From Escherichia coli (GTDB lineage: Bacteria; Pseudomonadota; Gammaproteobacteria; Enterobacterales; Enterobacteriaceae): 64,000 nucleotides of DNA. The translations under genes and the position numbers were made by a program. The DNA is taken from NCBI RefSeq assembly GCF_041886205.1, contig NZ_CP169029.1; one strand, given 5' to 3'. Shown in pieces: positions 28,975-33,848 of the stretch (position 1 is the first letter of the stretch; each line of letters starts with the position of its first letter). Below the pieces are notes generated by a model that saw only the letters and a list, made by a program, of their open reading frames with translations, did no database searches and was not told the DNA's origin.

Positions 28975-30012
28975 TTAACGCTTATCCGCCACCAGTTTGA
29001 GCGCGTGTTCCAGCACATTAATGTCTGCACCCGCTTTATGGGCATTTTCACTTAAATAACGCCGCCACTGCCGCGCGCCAGGAATACCCTGGAACAAGCC
29101 CAACATATGCCGGGTAATATGACCGAGATACGTCCCCTGGCTGAGTTCACGCTCAATGTACGGATACATGGCGCGCACTACCGCCACCGGATCGGCATCG
29201 ATATCCGAGGAACCAAAGATCTCCCGGTCTACCGCCGCCAGAATACCCGGATTCTGATACGCCTCGCGCCCGACCATCACGCCATCCATATGTTGCAGGT
29301 GTGCTTTGGCCTCTTCCAGCGACTTGATACCACCGTTAATCGACATTGTCAGATGCGGAAAGTCACGCTTCAGTTGATACACACGCGGATAATCGAGCGG
29401 CGGGATCTCACGGTTTTCTTTCGGACTTAACCCCGAAAGCCAGGCTTTACGTGCATGGATGATGAACATCTCACACTCGCCTTTGCCGGAAACGGTGTTG
29501 ATGAAATCGCAGAGAAATTCATAGCTGTCCTGGTCGTCGATGCCAATACGCGTTTTCACCGTCACCGGAATCGACACCACATCGCGCATCGCTTTCACGC
29601 AGTCGGCAACCAGCTGCGCATTACCCATCAGACACGCACCAAACATGCCGTTCTGCACCCGGTCAGACGGGCAGCCGACATTCAGGTTGATCTCATCATA
29701 TCCACGCGCTTCTGCCAGCTTCGCACACTGCGCCAGCGCCGCCGGATCGCTACCGCCGAGTTGCAACGCTACCGGATGTTCTTCTTCACTATACGCCAGG
29801 TAATCACCTTTACCGTGAATAATCGCCCCTGTAGTTACCATTTCAGTATACAGCAACGTATTGCGGGAAAGCAGACGCAAGAAATAGCGGCAATGTCTGT
29901 CCGTCCAGTCGAGCATAGGAGCAATGCTAAACCGAGAATTCCAGTAAACACCAGTTTTTTCAGGCATCACGCTGGTTTGATTAATTTTTTGTGTTTCATG
30001 ATTATCGTGCAT
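28975..30012 (-). CDS. dusA: tRNA-dihydrouridine synthase A DusA; 5' end abuts the prophage integrase
   Basis: Dus-family TIM-barrel flavoenzyme; alternative start at 29967 would give 330 aa; the extreme 5' end is probably supplied by the integrated element. Confidence 0.9.
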
Positions 30013-30100
30013 TTTTGAACATTTCAGGCTATTTTTCTCGCGTTAGGTTCCCGCACAGGTTCCCACGTTTTATGGGAACCCGAAATAACGAGGTCGTGTA

Positions 30101-31198
30101 ATGGCGTACTATAACATAGAGAAACGACTAAAATCCGATGGCACACCACGCTATCGCTGTAATGTGATTATCAAAGAAAAAGGTGTTATCACTTACAGGG
30201 AAAGCAAAACATTCCCTAAACATGCTCATGCCAAAACATGGGGCACACAGAAAGTGATGGAATTAGATCTATATGGCATTCCATCATCAAATGCAGTTGA
30301 CGGACTTACAGTCCGTGACTTACTACACAAATATTTAAATGACCCAAATGCCGGAGGTAAAGCAGGCCGTACTAAAAGATATGTGCTAGAACTGCTTATG
30401 GATAGTGACATCTCCGCGATCAAACTATCTGAACTGACAGAAAATGACGTAATTGAACATTGCAGGCTAAGAAACAACGCTGGCGCAGGTCCAGCAACAG
30501 TCAGCCACGATGTTAGTTATCTTGGTAGTGTTCTGGATGCGGCCAAACCTGTATACGGAATTAATTACACATCAAACCCGGCGAAAAGTGCTCGTCCATA
30601 TCTACTTAAACTTGGTTTGATTGGTAAATCAAACCGTCGTAATCGTAGACCAGCATCTGATGAACTGGACATGCTCATTGAAGGCCTTCAACAACGATCT
30701 ACTCATAAATGCTCAAAAATTCCGTTCGTTGATATCCTCAAATTTTCTGTGTGGTCCTGTATGCGAATCGGAGAAGTATGCCGGTTACGATGGGAAGATC
30801 TCGACCAGGAACAAAAATCTATACTCGTAAGAGACAGGAAAGATCCACGCAAAAAGGAAGGCAACCACATGAAAGTAGCCTTGCTTGGGGAAGCCTGGGA
30901 TATCGTCCAACGACAGCCCCAAAAATCGGAATTCATTTTTCCATATAACAGCACTTCTGTTACTGCGGGATTTCAGAGAGTAAGAAGCAAATTAGGTATT
31001 AAGGATCTGCGATACCATGATTTGCGTAGAGAAGGGGCAAGTCGCTTATTTGAGGCTGGTTTTAGTATTGAGGAAGTCGCCCAGGTTACAGGGCATCGTT
31101 CATTAAACGTGCTATGGCAGGTATATACCGAACTGTATCCGAAATCTTTACATAATCGTTTTGAAGAGCTCCAAAGGAGCAGAAATAAGATCCCTTGA
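30101..31198 (+). CDS. int: Tyrosine site-specific integrase (dusA-targeting type)
   Basis: 365-aa ORF with C-terminal catalytic region (HDLRREGASR ... LWQVYTELY); first phage gene next to the dusA 5' end. Confidence 0.8.
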   Translation: MAYYNIEKRLKSDGTPRYRCNVIIKEKGVITYRESKTFPKHAHAKTWGTQKVMELDLYGIPSSNAVDGLTVRDLLHKYLNDPNAGGKAGRTKRYVLELLMDSDISAIKLSELTENDVIEHCRLRNNAGAGPATVSHDVSYLGSVLDAAKPVYGINYTSNPAKSARPYLLKLGLIGKSNRRNRRPASDELDMLIEGLQQRSTHKCSKIPFVDILKFSVWSCMRIGEVCRLRWEDLDQEQKSILVRDRKDPRKKEGNHMKVALLGEAWDIVQRQPQKSEFIFPYNSTSVTAGFQRVRSKLGIKDLRYHDLRREGASRLFEAGFSIEEVAQVTGHRSLNVLWQVYTELYPKSLHNRFEELQRSRNKIP

Positions 31199-31200
31199 CA

Positions 31201-31244
31201 CTGTTTATCCATACAGTTAAAAATAATACTGTATACAAACACAG
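31201..31244. promoter_or_regulatory. Two tandem LexA (SOS) boxes upstream of the dinI-like gene
   Basis: ctgtttatccatacag (31201-31216) and ctgtatacaaacacag (31229-31244), both CTGT-N8-ACAG; a TTGACA hexamer sits at 31195-31200. Confidence 0.7.
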
Positions 31245-31259
31245 TATAGAGGGACTTTT

Positions 31260-31508
31260 ATGCGTATTGAAATCTGCATAGCCAAAGAAAAAATGACTAA
31301 AATGCCAACCGGTGCTGTGGATGCGTTAAAGGAAGAATTAACCCGACGCATCAGTAAGCGTTATGACGATGTAGAGGTGATCGTAAAAGCCACCAGCAAC
31401 GATGGGCTTTCAGTTACACCTACTGCAGATAAAGATTCAGCTAAAACTTTTGTGCAGGAAACTCTGAAAGATACCTGGGAGTCTGCTGACGAGTGGTTTG
31501 TTCACTAA
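31260..31508 (+). CDS. DinI-family protein (82 aa)
   Basis: [31 protein letters not shown]...[16 protein letters not shown] resembles DinI (MRIEV..., C-terminal ETWESADDWFV). Confidence 0.75.
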
Positions 31509-31731: not shown

Positions 31732-32788
31732 GGCTTTGTTGAATAAATCAGATTTCGGGTAAGTCTCCCCCGTAGCGGGTTGTGTTTTCAGGCAATACGC
31801 ACGCTTTCAGGCATACCTGCTTTCGTCATTTTGTTCAGCGCTCGTACCAGGGCCATAGCCTCTGCAACCTGACCATCGTAGTCACGCAGCGTCAGTGAAC
31901 CCCCGAACAGCTGTTTTACCCGGTACATCGCCGTTTCCGCTATCGAGCGACGGTTGTAATCTGTTGTCCATTTCCACCGCGCATTACTCCCGGTCATTCG
32001 CTGATTAGCCACTGCACGGTTACGGTCTGCATATTCACCGGGCCAGTAACCCGCACCTTTTCGGGGAGGGATAAGCGCGCTGATTTTCTTACGCCGCAGT
32101 TCATCGTGACATAGCCGGGTATCGTAAGCGCCATCGGCGGCGGCTGACCTGATTTTCCGGTGGGTTTGCCGGATTAACCCGGGGAAGGCCTCTGAGTCCG
32201 TAACGTTGTTCAGCGACAGGTCAGCGCAGATGATTTCATGTGTTTTACTGTCAACGGCGAGATGCAGCTTACGCCAGATACGGCGGCGTTCCTGGCCATG
32301 CTTTTTGACTTTCCACTCGCCTTCACCGAAGACCTTCAGCCCGGTGGAATCAATTACCAGGTGTGCGATTTCACCCCGGGTGGGCGTTTTGAAACTGACA
32401 TTAACCGACTTTGCCCGCCTGCTGACACAGCTGTAATCCGGGCAGCGTAGCGGAACGTTCATCAGAGAAAAAATGGAATCAATAAAGCCCTGCGCAGCGC
32501 GCAGGGTCAGCCTGAATACGCGTTTAATGACCAGCACAGTCGTGATGGCAAGGTCAGAATAGCGCTGAGGTCTGCCTCGTGAAGAAGGTGTTGCTGACTC
32601 ATACCAGGCCTGAATAGCTTCATCATCCAGCCAGAAAGTTATGGAGCCACGGTTGATGAGGGCTTTATTGTAGGTGGGCCAGTTGGTGATTTTGAACTTT
32701 TGCTTTGCCACGGAACGGTCTGCGTTGTCGGGAAGATACGTGATCTGATCCTTCAACTCAGCAAAAGTTCGATTTATTCAACAAAGCC
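31732..32788. mobile_element. IS903-group insertion sequence (IS5 family), 1057 bp, apparently intact
   Basis: 18-bp terminal inverted repeats ggctttgttgaataaatc (31732-31749) and gatttattcaacaaagcc (32771-32788); flanked by 9-bp direct target duplication gtgctttgg (31723-31731 and 32789-32797). Confidence 0.9.
31788..32756 (-). CDS. IS903-group DDE transposase
   Basis: 322-aa ORF filling the IS; motif DSTGLKVFGEGEWKVKKHG typical of IS903/IS102 transposases; true start may be internal. Confidence 0.85.
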   Translation of the reverse strand: MKDQITYLPDNADRSVAKQKFKITNWPTYNKALINRGSITFWLDDEAIQAWYESATPSSRGRPQRYSDLAITTVLVIKRVFRLTLRAAQGFIDSIFSLMNVPLRCPDYSCVSRRAKSVNVSFKTPTRGEIAHLVIDSTGLKVFGEGEWKVKKHGQERRRIWRKLHLAVDSKTHEIICADLSLNNVTDSEAFPGLIRQTHRKIRSAAADGAYDTRLCHDELRRKKISALIPPRKGAGYWPGEYADRNRAVANQRMTGSNARWKWTTDYNRRSIAETAMYRVKQLFGGSLTLRDYDGQVAEAMALVRALNKMTKAGMPESVRIA

Positions 32789-32843
32789 GTGCTTTGGCTG
32801 AGGAACAGCATTAAATTCAACCATTTTATTCATAGGGATTAAA

Positions 32844-33848
32844 ATGCAAGATACAGACGTTTACGTATACATAGGCGATGTTCACCGCTCTGGTCATCAC
32901 GACATCACCAAAGCGATTAAAGAAAGAAAAACTAACCATGGTTTACAAAAAAATGTTCTTTTTTGCGTCGCTACCTATGGCGGTGATCCCAGCGCAGGAT
33001 ATAGAATTGGCCGCGCTTTGCAACACAACTATGAACACATCACCGTTCTAGTTGTTGGCCCTTGCAAAAGTGCTGGAACCTTGATGGCTGTCGCCGCTCA
33101 TAAGCTCGTGATTGGTGATATGGGTGAGCTTGGTCCTCTAGACATCCAACTTAAGAAAAATGATGAGATCGGCGAATTGAGCTCGGGCCTTGTTATCGCA
33201 ACGGCGATTGATGAAATAAAAGAGTGCGCTATTTCGACCTTTAGATCATACGTACTTGATATAAAGTACAGAAACCAAATTAGCACGAAGATGTCTGCAG
33301 ATATTGCTGCTAAGCTTACTGAAGCAATCATATCGCCGATGGCCTCACAGATAGACCCCATCAAACTCGGGGAGCATCAACGAGCAATGAACATAGCGCT
33401 TTCCTATGGGGAGCGTTTGAATAGTCACTCGAAAAATCTTAAGGAAAGCTCCTTAGGCAAGTTGATCGCTGGATATCCAGCCCATGGTTTTGTGATAGAC
33501 CGTAAAGAGGCGAGGGAACTATTCAACCATGTTGAGAGTCCTACAGACTTTGCAGCCAACCTGTACGAAGTTCTTGGTGAGATGATTTCGTCAGGCGAAA
33601 TCTCTATCTTCGACAAACCGGTGATTAAAGATTTAACTCCTAAAAAACAATATGAAACAACTAACGCAGAGGAAGATTCCCATGACAACAGCAGAATTCA
33701 GGAAGGAGATGAAATCTCTGACCAAAATTCAGGAAGAGCAGAACCGCCAAGGGATGAACCTGTCCAGGGAAGCGATGGAAAACATGCGGAAATTGAAGAA
33801 GAGGCTGGAACCTTACCAGCAGAGCAACCAGATGAAGGCACTCAGTGA
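32844..33848 (+). CDS. Orphan ClpP/crotonase-fold serine peptidase-like protein (S49/SDH-like) with acidic low-complexity C-terminal tail
   Basis: 334-aa AT-rich ORF with SD (aggga) 8 bp upstream; core ...VATYGGDPSAGYRIGRAL...VVGPCKSAGTLMAVAAHKLVIGDMGELGPLD resembles Clp-fold peptidases; last ~70 aa rich in E/D/Q; family assignment from memory only. Confidence 0.55.
   Translation: MQDTDVYVYIGDVHRSGHHDITKAIKERKTNHGLQKNVLFCVATYGGDPSAGYRIGRALQHNYEHITVLVVGPCKSAGTLMAVAAHKLVIGDMGELGPLDIQLKKNDEIGELSSGLVIATAIDEIKECAISTFRSYVLDIKYRNQISTKMSADIAAKLTEAIISPMASQIDPIKLGEHQRAMNIALSYGERLNSHSKNLKESSLGKLIAGYPAHGFVIDRKEARELFNHVESPTDFAANLYEVLGEMISSGEISIFDKPVIKDLTPKKQYETTNAEEDSHDNSRIQEGDEISDQNSGRAEPPRDEPVQGSDGKHAEIEEEAGTLPAEQPDEGTQ

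Follow-up and report, generated by a model that had tools for sequence, protein, structure and literature searches.

The window analyzed here is a 64,000-nucleotide stretch of an Escherichia coli genome (contig NZ_CP169029.1, assembly GCF_041886205.1) in which dusA and a tyrosine integrase gene, int, are transcribed away from each other (Table 1). The divergence had been recognized in an earlier note made from the sequence alone, which placed the int start 89 bp from dusA; the spacer in fact measures 88 bp. In other genera, 23 related loci show a separation of 85–101 bp between the two genes. ARAGORN predicted zero tRNA or tmRNA genes across the 64-kb window, as the same note had supposed for the vicinity of int. 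A promoter and terminator scan of positions 29850–31350 returned the promoter of the dinI-like gene as its sole promoter, with no sigma-70 consensus promoter for int in the spacer; a terminator-like match inside int was at chance level and was discarded.

Table 1. Coordinates of features in and around the dusA-int locus (position 1 is the first base of the window)
Feature	Position	Strand	Remarks
dusA	28975-30012	minus	345 aa, intact ORF; Pfam Dus E 2e-104
Host-derived part of dusA, codon 35 third base to stop	28975-29908	minus	97-100% identical to empty-site K-12 and B2
Int-proximal junction core (attL of the earlier note)	29904-29920		TCCAG-TCGAGCA-TAGGA
Block common to attP, attB, attL and attR, TCGAGCAT	29909-29916		dusA codons M33-L34-D35
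Phage-supplied dusA 5' end, codons 1-32	29917-30012	minus	95/96 nt identical to SKA5 attP
Spacer between dusA and int	30013-30100		88 bp; phage-derived; P' arm of attP
Candidate arm-type site P'1, AGGTTCCC	30045-30052	plus	Position conserved
Candidate arm-type site P'2, AGGTTCCC	30057-30064	plus	Conserved across loci
Candidate arm-type site P'3, GGGAACCC (reverse complement GGGTTCCC)	30074-30081	minus	Inverted relative to P'1 and P'2
GAGG ribosome-binding site of int	30090-30093	plus	7 nt 5' of int ATG; read from sequence
int, dusA-associated tyrosine integrase	30101-31198	plus	365 aa; Pfam Phage_integrase PF00589 E 7.5e-21
Int domains	Residues 2-58; ~71-171; ~186-362		N-terminal; core-binding; catalytic
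Candidate extended -10-like element, TGTTATAGT	30108-30116	minus	Faces dusA; antisense of int codons 3-6
dinI-like gene	31260-31508	plus	In feature 31195-31508; promoter TTGACA-18-AAAAAT
Two LexA-box-like sites by dinI-like gene	31201-31216, 31229-31244
IS5-family transposase ORF	31788-32756	minus	NCBIfam NF033579, 357 bits vs cut-off 140
SDH-type ClpP-like serine protease, cargo gene	32844-33848	plus	Also beside dinI in GXU-23-25-310
Remaining prophage in window	34281-64000		PHROGs matches; continues past window

On sequence comparison the int product is a member of the dusA-associated integrase (DAI) family, a system which is already known. It shares 361 of 363 residues with the integrases adjoining dusA in ETEC H10407 and O157:H7 EC4115 (both listed in Table S1 of Farrugia et al.) and is 98.9–99.7% identical to those of phages mEp460, SKA5, 1720a-02 (99.2%), Lys8385Vzw and phiSTEC1575-Stx2k. 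Among 5,426 complete genomes of E. coli, 732 (~13%) have this gene beside dusA. Farrugia et al. (2015, PMC4482086) defined DAIs as tyrosine recombinases encoded next to dusA in divergent orientation, with the element supplying a new dusA 5' end; insertion is into the conserved 5' region of the gene, the att repeats are semi-conserved, and a prtN homolog is often linked. Both H10407 and EC4115 of E. coli count among the members, and the present element does not differ from the family in kind. Arm-type sites go unmentioned in that study, the word "arm" having zero occurrences, and no description of such sites for the dusA integrase family was found in the literature searched. By catalytic-domain phylogeny the closest characterized relative named by Farrugia et al. 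is Rci (PMC4482086), and mEp460 carries the depositor's note "INT_Rci cd00796".

The catalytic residues of Int (R222, H306, R309, H332 and Y342) fall in columns with little or no variation in an alignment of 29 sequences, and the Int model matches the Tn1549, lambda, XerA and Cre recombinases. Residues 1–60 are predicted to form a small, separate and confidently folded domain of three strands plus a helix. Pfam searches with residues 1–196 at E ≤ 10 gave only a weak Int_N match at 72–165 and none for 1–65; NCBIfam and PDB sequence searches with Int matched the catalytic domain only.

The core of the junction was defined by a four-way comparison of the window attL, the E89 attR, the K-12 attB and the attP of mEp460 and SKA5. 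The sequence TCCnnTCGAGCATnGGnGCAA is common to all four kinds of site and lies 97–104 nt into dusA, which agrees with the end-points in Table S1 of Farrugia et al.; the islands of H10407 and EC4115 end 103 nt into dusA, at the same place as the core of the window. The attP of mEp460 and SKA5 match the window from the core rightwards, int included, the spacer differing from them by zero bases and one base, respectively. Codons 1–32 of dusA are near-identical to the mEp460 attP as well, 81% identical to the 5' end of K-12 and unrelated to that of B2. The earlier note had proposed a comparison with prophage-free strains: K-12 and B2 have the sequence of the window as far as TCGAGCAT/TCAAGCAT and are different beyond. 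Its reading that a DAI has inserted a prophage into the 5' end of dusA and replaced the first codons of the gene holds, the attP and attB comparisons being in agreement with it. These alignments show strand exchange to fall within a 7–8-bp core, TCGAGCA(T), which lies in the codons of the conserved PMLDW motif, and phage DNA to run rightwards from 29917, where it comprises a copy-like dusA 5' end of 96 nt by which dusA stays open, the spacer and int. The same note had located the repeats described below in the junction, which actually lies inside dusA, 129 bp from the first repeat; the repeats are therefore internal phage-arm DNA.

Phage 1720a-02 (Stx2dact phage, KF030445) integrates ~100 bp into dusA at a 7-base core, and its excision with formation of attP is Int-dependent, as was established experimentally (PMC6328086). 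Excision as a circle which restores attB has been published both for this phage (PMC6328086) and for Acinetobacter and Pseudomonas islands (PMC4482086). The B2-type attB allele, TCAAGCA, has one mismatch in the overlap and was considered as a block to integration; this idea was rejected because MS20657 carries a prophage with a B2-type attR.

The best explanation of the window is that it holds the integrase-proximal junction of a ~40-kb temperate phage with the layout of SKA5 and of the H10407 prophage. Between 34281 and 64000 there are genes for a DNA invertase and tail-fiber switch, baseplate, contractile tail, HK97-type head and terminase, together with lysis, Q and replication genes and a CI-like repressor (63240–63893), and the prophage is collinear with that of TUM9754. 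The genomes associated with this integrase are mosaic, those of the window, SKA5, H10407 and TUM9754 having contractile tails whereas mEp460, E89 and GXU are lambda-like siphoviruses. The sequenced phages with the same integrase have dinI after int, as here, but in the window dinI and the invertase are separated by an IS5-family element and the SDH-type protease gene. A comparison of layouts showed the IS5-family insertion to be absent from SKA5, H10407 and GXU. Since the canonical IS5 inverted repeat GGAAGGTGCGAATAAG is absent from the window element, the latter is named to family level only.

It had been noted earlier that no excisionase gene adjoins int, and indeed the gene which follows is dinI-like. 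Nor did tblastn with two RdfN/PrtN proteins reveal an RdfN homolog in the 64-kb window. The directionality factor of the family, RdfN (PrtN family), is encoded across attP (PMC8409611), which would account for the lack of an excisionase beside int. In the element IMEVchUSA3, for which the function of RdfN was demonstrated, this protein is needed for excision, and its gene and int stand in facing orientation on either side of attP (Durand et al. 2021, PMC8409611). IMEVchUSA3 is a Vibrio mobilizable island under the control of IncC AcaCD, whereas the element in the window is a phage; in related Vibrio loci the int-dusA spacing is 205–226 bp, and the three-site pattern described below was not found there. 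A PrtN-family RdfN homolog lies 1–1.5 kb from attR in E89, GXU, TUM9754, EC4115, MS20657, mEp460, SKA5 and EKP1, and in relatives the displaced host 105-bp dusA 5' fragment is present at attR with the PrtN-family gene nearby. The attR of the present prophage falls outside the window, as had been anticipated; its position, estimated from the collinear TUM9754 prophage, is ~5.8 kb past the window end, and the RdfN gene would be expected close to it. The layout there would be GGTTCCCAATAGG(C/A)TCCC, 43 bp, then TCGAGCATTGGTGCAACGC and the 105-bp dusA 5' fragment.

The two copies of aggttccc and the inverted gggaacc (30074–30080) which the earlier note reported in the spacer are exact. The count of the 8-mer across the window is not above expectation (three found versus 1.6 expected), and three copies of one 7-mer within the 88-bp spacer arise in 0.6% of shuffles (p ~0.006), which is modestly improbable. 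Because these in-window statistics are weak, the repeats are convincing only by comparison with other loci, and this comparison makes the suggestion that they are integrase binding sites plausible. In 27 loci from many genera one finds two direct repeats 12 bp apart, followed by an inverted one, and their distance from int is fixed. The position of P'1 and the 12-bp P'1–P'2 spacing are kept in 26 of the 27; the sequence varies by class, the 7-mer switching as a set between GGTTCCC, GCACCCC, GTACACC, GGACACC, GGTATCC and GGGYCAC.

At the E89 locus all four matches to AGGYTCCC in 50 kb are accounted for by two tandem pairs on the same strand, one beside attL and one beside attR; a crude post-hoc estimate puts the chance of this arrangement at ~7e-11. 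Three prophages which are otherwise unrelated have attR arms that can be aligned from exactly the first GGTTCCC onward. Two plus three copies of the motif occupy the arms of four phage attP (mEp460, SKA5, YeP1 and EKP1). YeP1, EKP1 and Shewanella M16-3 have the motif of their own class on both arms, but in M16-3 the repeats are degenerate and irregularly spaced and those on the int side are not clearly three. The class of the motif tracks residues 1–60 of Int, with identities of 75% or more within a class and of no more than 75% between classes, and does not track residues 75 to the end, over which different-class pairs are up to 96% identical. As int and the P' sites are adjacent, co-inheritance would be expected whatever their function. 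A search with the IHF consensus gave a single 12/13 match, which lies in the mEp460 P arm; the arm present in the window has none.

This evidence, all of it from sequence, points to the repeats being lambda-like arm-type sites of Int, three of a set of five. The whole explanation, which we consider highly probable, is that a DAI placed the prophage in dusA, that the repeats are its P' arm sites and that Int is heterobivalent. The attP would be bipartite and ~235 bp long, its P' sites being the three GGTTCCC copies, two direct and 12 bp apart and one inverted. A further pair, GGTTCCC-N4-GGCTCCC, would lie 43 bp from the core on its opposite side and end up at attR. The N-terminal domain of Int (residues 2–58) would read the arm sites, leaving the core to the core-binding and catalytic domains. 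Since the arm sites are directly upstream of int, Int may also regulate its own expression.

The resemblance to lambda includes an attP of ~235 bp, arm motifs which differ from the core and are divided two and three between the arms, and a separate directionality factor. The modeled Int likewise appears to have the organization of lambda Int, with a small N-terminal beta-sheet-plus-helix domain, a linker, and core-binding and catalytic domains. Unlike lambda, the dusA system has one P' site inverted, its attP separates int from the directionality-factor gene, and its attB is within a protein-coding gene, the 5' end of which is replaced; moreover the N-domain of lambda Int has no detectable sequence similarity to that of the window Int. 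SXT/R391 also goes into the 5' end of a gene, prfC, but both its integrase family and its target differ from those of the dusA element.

One might instead regard the repeats as operators of another DNA-binding protein, either RdfN or one which regulates the divergent promoters of int and dusA. They do lie between divergent genes, where promoters must be, RdfN is a fast-evolving protein co-inherited across attP, and lambda Xis likewise binds tandem direct repeats. We nevertheless consider this unlikely, since the motif is found two plus three on both arms like that of lambda Int, directionality-factor sites being normally on one arm, and since its class tracks the N-terminal 60 residues of Int even where the rest is 96% identical; furthermore that region is the confidently folded small domain for which no other role is obvious. 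It is more improbable still that the covariation is due to base-pairing, P'2 and P'3 folding into a conserved hairpin in the DNA itself, in the int leader or in the 5' leader of dusA. The two can pair (predicted energy -12.6 kcal/mol for the plus strand, -17.7 kcal/mol for the minus) and they change together across classes. A hairpin, however, leaves P'1 and the two copies on the other arm unexplained; the P'1=P'2 identity is kept at least as well as the P'2/P'3 complementarity (8 versus 14 mismatches in 27 loci); the 7-bp stem has two mismatches in the Phytobacter, Pluralibacter, Morganella and Xenorhabdus loci; and no T-run follows the stem on either strand.

Finally, the repeats could be due to chance or be non-functional remnants beside a simple recombinase like Cre or like Rci, which is not known to use arm sites. 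The 8-mer count, not being above chance, and the closeness of Rci to this family reported by Farrugia et al. both lean this way. Against it, the position, number, spacing and orientation of the repeats are kept across genera with concerted turnover of their sequence, it is precisely from the first site on that unrelated prophages can be aligned, and both arms carry the motif in four motif classes, all of which makes this the least credible of the readings and one we would scarcely entertain.

A wider suggestion is put forward tentatively and at somewhat less than even chances: dusA integrases share one chromosomal core site but have at least 5–6 interchangeable modules of N-domain plus arm motif, corresponding to the 7-mer classes listed above, which are swapped between integrases near-identical in other respects. 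If true, elements which compete for one attB would be recombinationally orthogonal, with neither cross-excision nor cross-integration. That dusA is a hotspot for prophages and islands is documented, and this integrase has been catalogued and studied in a near-identical phage; its carriers include O157 remnants and Stx phages. The present analysis contributes the exact coordinates of the junction, accounts for the lack of an excisionase gene beside int, and proposes an attP map in which the core and five arm sites span ~235 bp, along with classes of N-domain/arm-motif specificity. The map could guide the design of a minimal attP for dusA-targeted integration vectors and could help to explain how different elements share one attB.

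The element TGTTATAGT may be the -10 of a phage-supplied dusA promoter, and the first int codons (MAYYxI) may double, on the other strand, as this -10 element. The form TGnTATA(G/A)T is kept in 22 of the 22 listed dusA-adjacent int loci of the Enterobacterales type, and K-12 and B2, whose sites are empty, have the same 12-mer upstream of dusA. IMEVchUSA3 gives dusA a new promoter, as was demonstrated experimentally, and an N-terminus of the same length, its Pint being constitutive (PMC8409611). The "native" dusA 5' end and promoter of the K-12 type may themselves be the fossil of such an element. A test of the fossil idea by local alignment against shuffles gave p ~0.04. With an nhmmer profile built from the spacer and the 5' end of int, the empty sites of K-12 and B2 scored only E 0.43 and 0.19, respectively, and were not accepted as fossils; the same profile identified a clear fossil in Salmonella diarizonae L055 (E 1e-16).

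A prophage lies beside dusA, and int, its dusA-associated tyrosine integrase gene, is divergent from dusA as the earlier note had it, although the spacer measures 88 bp and not the 89 bp claimed there. To the left lies E. coli chromosome (dnaB, qor, pspG, dusA). The prophage occupies the window from int to its end: int is followed by a dinI-like gene, an IS5-family transposase and an SDH-type protease, and further on by a DNA invertase with tail-fibre genes, baseplate, tail sheath, HK97-type head, terminase, lysis genes, Q and an O-like replication protein; a CI-like repressor is also encoded. The reported lack of a tRNA near int holds for the whole window, in which ARAGORN finds neither tRNA nor tmRNA, and so does that of an excisionase gene beside int, the next gene being DinI-like. 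K-12 has a yjbLM (DUF2713) pseudogene beside dusA, followed by zur; in a B2 strain dusA directly adjoins zur. This int adjoins dusA in 732 of 5,426 complete E. coli genomes.

Features of the dusA-int region and the adjoining prophage (window coordinates)
Feature	Position	Strand	Remarks
dusA	28975-30012	minus	345 aa; Pfam Dus, E 2e-104
Region of strand exchange	29909-29916		dusA codons M33-L34-D35
dusA codons 1-32, phage DNA	29917-30012
dusA-int spacer, phage DNA	30013-30100		88 bp
Putative arm site P'1	30045-30052		AGGTTCCC
Putative arm site P'2	30057-30064		AGGTTCCC
Putative arm site P'3	30074-30080		GGGAACC
int (tyrosine recombinase)	30101-31198	plus	Pfam Phage_integrase, E 7.5e-21
Extended -10-like element facing dusA	30108-30116	minus	TGTTATAGT; antisense of int codons 3-6
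TTGACA-18-AAAAAT promoter with LexA-box-like sites	31195-31244
LexA-box-like site	31201-31216		CTGTTTATCCATACAG
LexA-box-like site	31229-31244		CTGTATACAAACACAG
IS5-family transposase ORF and SDH-type protease gene	31788-33848
CI-like repressor	63240-63893

Alignment of the window with two prophage-free sites, those of K-12 and a B2 strain, gave near-identity up to ...GTCCGTCCAGTCGAGCAT and divergence beyond. Across the int region strain E89 shares 99.6% identity with the window; its 43-kb lambdoid prophage terminates at a 105-bp dusA 5' pseudogene that matches the 5' end of K-12 dusA without a difference, and the same displaced pseudogene pattern occurs in GXU-23-25-310, TUM9754 and O157:H7 EC4115. 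Intact attP was found in sequenced phages with this integrase, that of mEp460 and SKA5 reading ...GGTACATCCTA-TCGAGCAT-AGGAGCAATGC... and agreeing with the window over the stretch running from core to int inclusive, apart from one to a few single bases. Comparison of attP (ATCCTA TCGAGCAT AGGAGC), K-12 attB (GTCCAG TCGAGCAT TGGTGC), the window's attL (GTCCAG TCGAGCAT AGGAGC) and attR (ATCCTA TCGAGCAT TGGTGC) places strand exchange within codons M33-L34-D35, which belong to the conserved APMLDW motif of dusA. In attP the 7-bp TCGAGCA stands between TCCTA and TAGGA, which are perfect inverted repeats of each other. Judged from these four sites, Int recombination takes place between the attP core and codons 33-35 of dusA; imperfect repeats flank the resulting prophage, and dusA runs on into phage-encoded codons 1-32, which bears out the suggestion that its first codons had been replaced. 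The spacer is likewise phage DNA, so that the repeats, which the earlier note put in the junction, are internal to the element, 129-165 bp inside it. In TUM9754, which has a prophage of the window's type, attR lies ~5.8 kb past the position matching the window end, in keeping with an attR beyond the window.

The dusA-associated integrases were defined by Farrugia et al. (PMC4482086) as tyrosine recombinases beside the dusA 5' end; their elements bring a replacement 5' end, frequently include a prtN homologue and have att sequences of 21 bp that are semi-conserved. Table S1 of that paper includes E. coli H10407 and EC4115, whose integrases are identical to the window Int at 361/363 residues and whose island end-points, 103 nt into dusA, coincide with the core found here. 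Phage 1720a-02, with an Int 99.2% identical to that of the window, integrates ~100 bp into dusA of Citrobacter rodentium, has a 7-base core common to attL, attR and attB, and requires Int for attP formation after SOS induction (PMC6328086). Near-identity to the catalogued integrases, matching end-points and the 1720a-02 experiments establish the proposed membership in this dusA-inserting family; the kind of feature is well documented, and for practical purposes this integrase has already been studied.

Working with a Vibrio dusA island in E. coli, Durand et al. (PMC8409611) identified the PrtN-family protein RdfN as directionality factor, its gene lying across attP from int. A PrtN-family gene is found 1-1.5 kb from attR in every complete relative, and none was found in the window; the excisionase is presumably absent beside int because RdfN is encoded across attP, at the attR end. 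A 10.9-kb dusA remnant in O157:H7 EC4115 (L063:7871-9868) retains int, dinI, rdfN and attR, with three DUF1076 genes plus tail-fibre fragments in place of the interior.

The repeats lie exactly where they had been reported and are by themselves only mildly unusual: the 8-mer count within the window is at chance level, and 0.6% of shuffles give a 7-mer in three copies within 88 bp. Five lines of comparison nevertheless favour the earlier suggestion of integrase binding sites and point to arm-type sites. The 50-kb E89 locus has only four matches to AGGYTCCC, which form two tandem pairs on the same strand, one beside attL and the other beside attR (chance ~7e-11, a rough post-hoc estimate). Three different prophages have attR-side arms that share no relationship outside GGTTCCCAATAGGCTCCC but are conserved from it to the core, and thus the outermost site is the edge of the conserved attP. 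Phages mEp460, SKA5, YeP1 and EKP1 carry the motif of their class on both attP arms, with two copies beyond the core on the far side (P1 and P2) and three on the int side; in Shewanella phage M16-3 both arms bear a degenerate motif of GGYGCCCC type, irregularly spaced and with no clear third copy. The published qPCR primers for 1720a-02 attP, CTTTGGATAGGTTCCCAATAGGC and GGGTTCCCATAAAACGTGGG, coincide with motifs of the P and P' arms; the attP validated by experiment in this phage therefore has the same arm repeats, which receive no comment in that paper (PMC6328086).

Fifty related loci were retrieved (Int identity 37-99%, one genome per species). dusA lies divergently upstream of int in 31 of the 47 examined, at a distance of 78-113 bp in 25 of these 31. 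The spacer of 27 loci keeps a layout of direct repeat, 12 bp, direct repeat and an inverted copy, the last at a constant distance from the int ATG, and the 7-mer varies by lineage with all three copies switching together: GGTTCCC or GGCTCCC in Escherichia, Kosakonia and Phytobacter; GCACCCC in Izhakiella, Mixta, Sodalis and phage YeP1; GTACACC in Xenorhabdus, Fukatsuia and phage EKP1; GGACACC in Rosenbergiella gaditana, Erwinia dacicola and Proteus; GGTATCC in Shewanella; and GGGYCAC in Algicola. Int residues 1-60 track these classes, with pairwise identities of 75% or more within a class (mean 86%) and no higher than 75% between classes (mean 63%). Residue 75 to the end does not, since different-class pairs reach 96% (two Rosenbergiella integrases) and same-class pairs fall as low as 68%. 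Thus the N-terminal domain and the arm motif appear to move as a module. Natural chimeras exist (L016 and L017, from two Rosenbergiella species; also L010/L054 and L019/L027), with 89-96% identity from residue 75 onward, only 62-73% in residues 1-60, and different arm motifs within pairs (GGACACC versus GCACCCC in Rosenbergiella). In the AlphaFold model the N-terminal domain, residues 2-58, has three strands and a helix (pLDDT 95 modelled alone); a linker modelled at low confidence joins it to the core-binding domain, which is helical, and the catalytic domain.

Ten relatives from Serratia, Xenorhabdus and Hafnia (L023, L024, L029-L032, L034, L042, L043 and L047) are without dusA within 1.5 kb upstream, and all ten have two direct arm repeats before int; most of them still carry CGTGCAT, a mimic of the dusA start, and several have lost the inverted third copy.

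P'2 and P'3 could alternatively form a hairpin, with a predicted energy of -12.6 to -17.7 kcal/mol, but this leaves P'1 and the far-arm copies unaccounted for, and across the 27 loci identity of the direct repeats is conserved no less well than complementarity of the stem (8 vs 14 mismatches). Recognition by RdfN or some other regulator is a less likely reading, agreeing less well with the occurrence on two arms and with the link to the N-terminal domain, and the comparisons all but rule out a chance origin. No arm-site map or motif classes for dusA-associated integrases were found described in the literature searched; they are a small, testable addition.

With the repeats taken as arm-type sites, attP would span ~235 bp in the order P1-N4-P2, 43 bp, core, 128 bp, P'1-N4-P'2-N9-P'3, 19 bp, int ATG, and Int, with two DNA-binding parts, would bridge arm and core sites in the manner of lambda Int. 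Work on close or related elements has shown that excision requires Int (PMC6328086) and is directed by RdfN (PMC8409611). Integration would separate int from the early operon containing rdfN, int then depending on a local promoter; a consensus search for one identified none. Since the arm sites are just upstream of int, Int could possibly autoregulate its own gene.

Related dusA elements drive dusA expression. The TGnTATA(G/A)T antisense to the int start is kept in 22/22 dusA-adjacent Enterobacterales-type int loci listed, codon 4 always being TAT, and the 12-mer TATGnTATAGTA also occurs upstream of dusA in the empty K-12 (L001:3696-3707) and B2 (L002:3607-3618) sites. TGTTATAGT may be an element-supplied dusA promoter carried within int.

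K-12-type and B2-type chromosomes part exactly at the att core (L001:3526-5211 vs L002:3526-3658; window 29917 onward). The K-12 segment, 1.69 kb, comprises the yjbLM/DUF2713 pseudogene and a dusA 5' end with 81% identity to that of the phage; the B2 segment is 133 bp and its dusA 14 codons shorter. The position of the divergence and the phage-like K-12 5' end suggest that an old insertion left one of the types, probably K-12, as its relic; in K-12 a profile search for such a fossil was not significant (E 0.43). That dusA-element fossils do persist is seen in Salmonella enterica subsp. diarizonae (L055:2399-2527), where a clear relic of the spacer and first ~12 int codons adjoins dusA (nhmmer E 1e-16; tblastn extends it to about 30 codons), its arm repeats decayed. 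The B2-type attB, TCAAGCAT (L002:3510-3517), has one mismatch to TCGAGCAT, inside the overlap. In MS20657 (L064:2920-3000) a B2-type site is occupied despite the mismatch, attR having the A allele. The B2 type makes up ~21% of complete genomes and is, in a small sample, seemingly less often occupied.

The LexA-box-like sites before the dinI-like gene overlap a promoter right after the int stop, and gene and promoter together look like an SOS-controlled moron, kept beside int in many such phages. Between dinI and the invertase are the transposase ORF and the ClpP-like protease gene, where a canonical IS5 terminal repeat was looked for and not found. Unlike the window, SKA5 and H10407 have the invertase directly after dinI, and GXU-23-25-310 has the protease without the IS, whereas the window has both.
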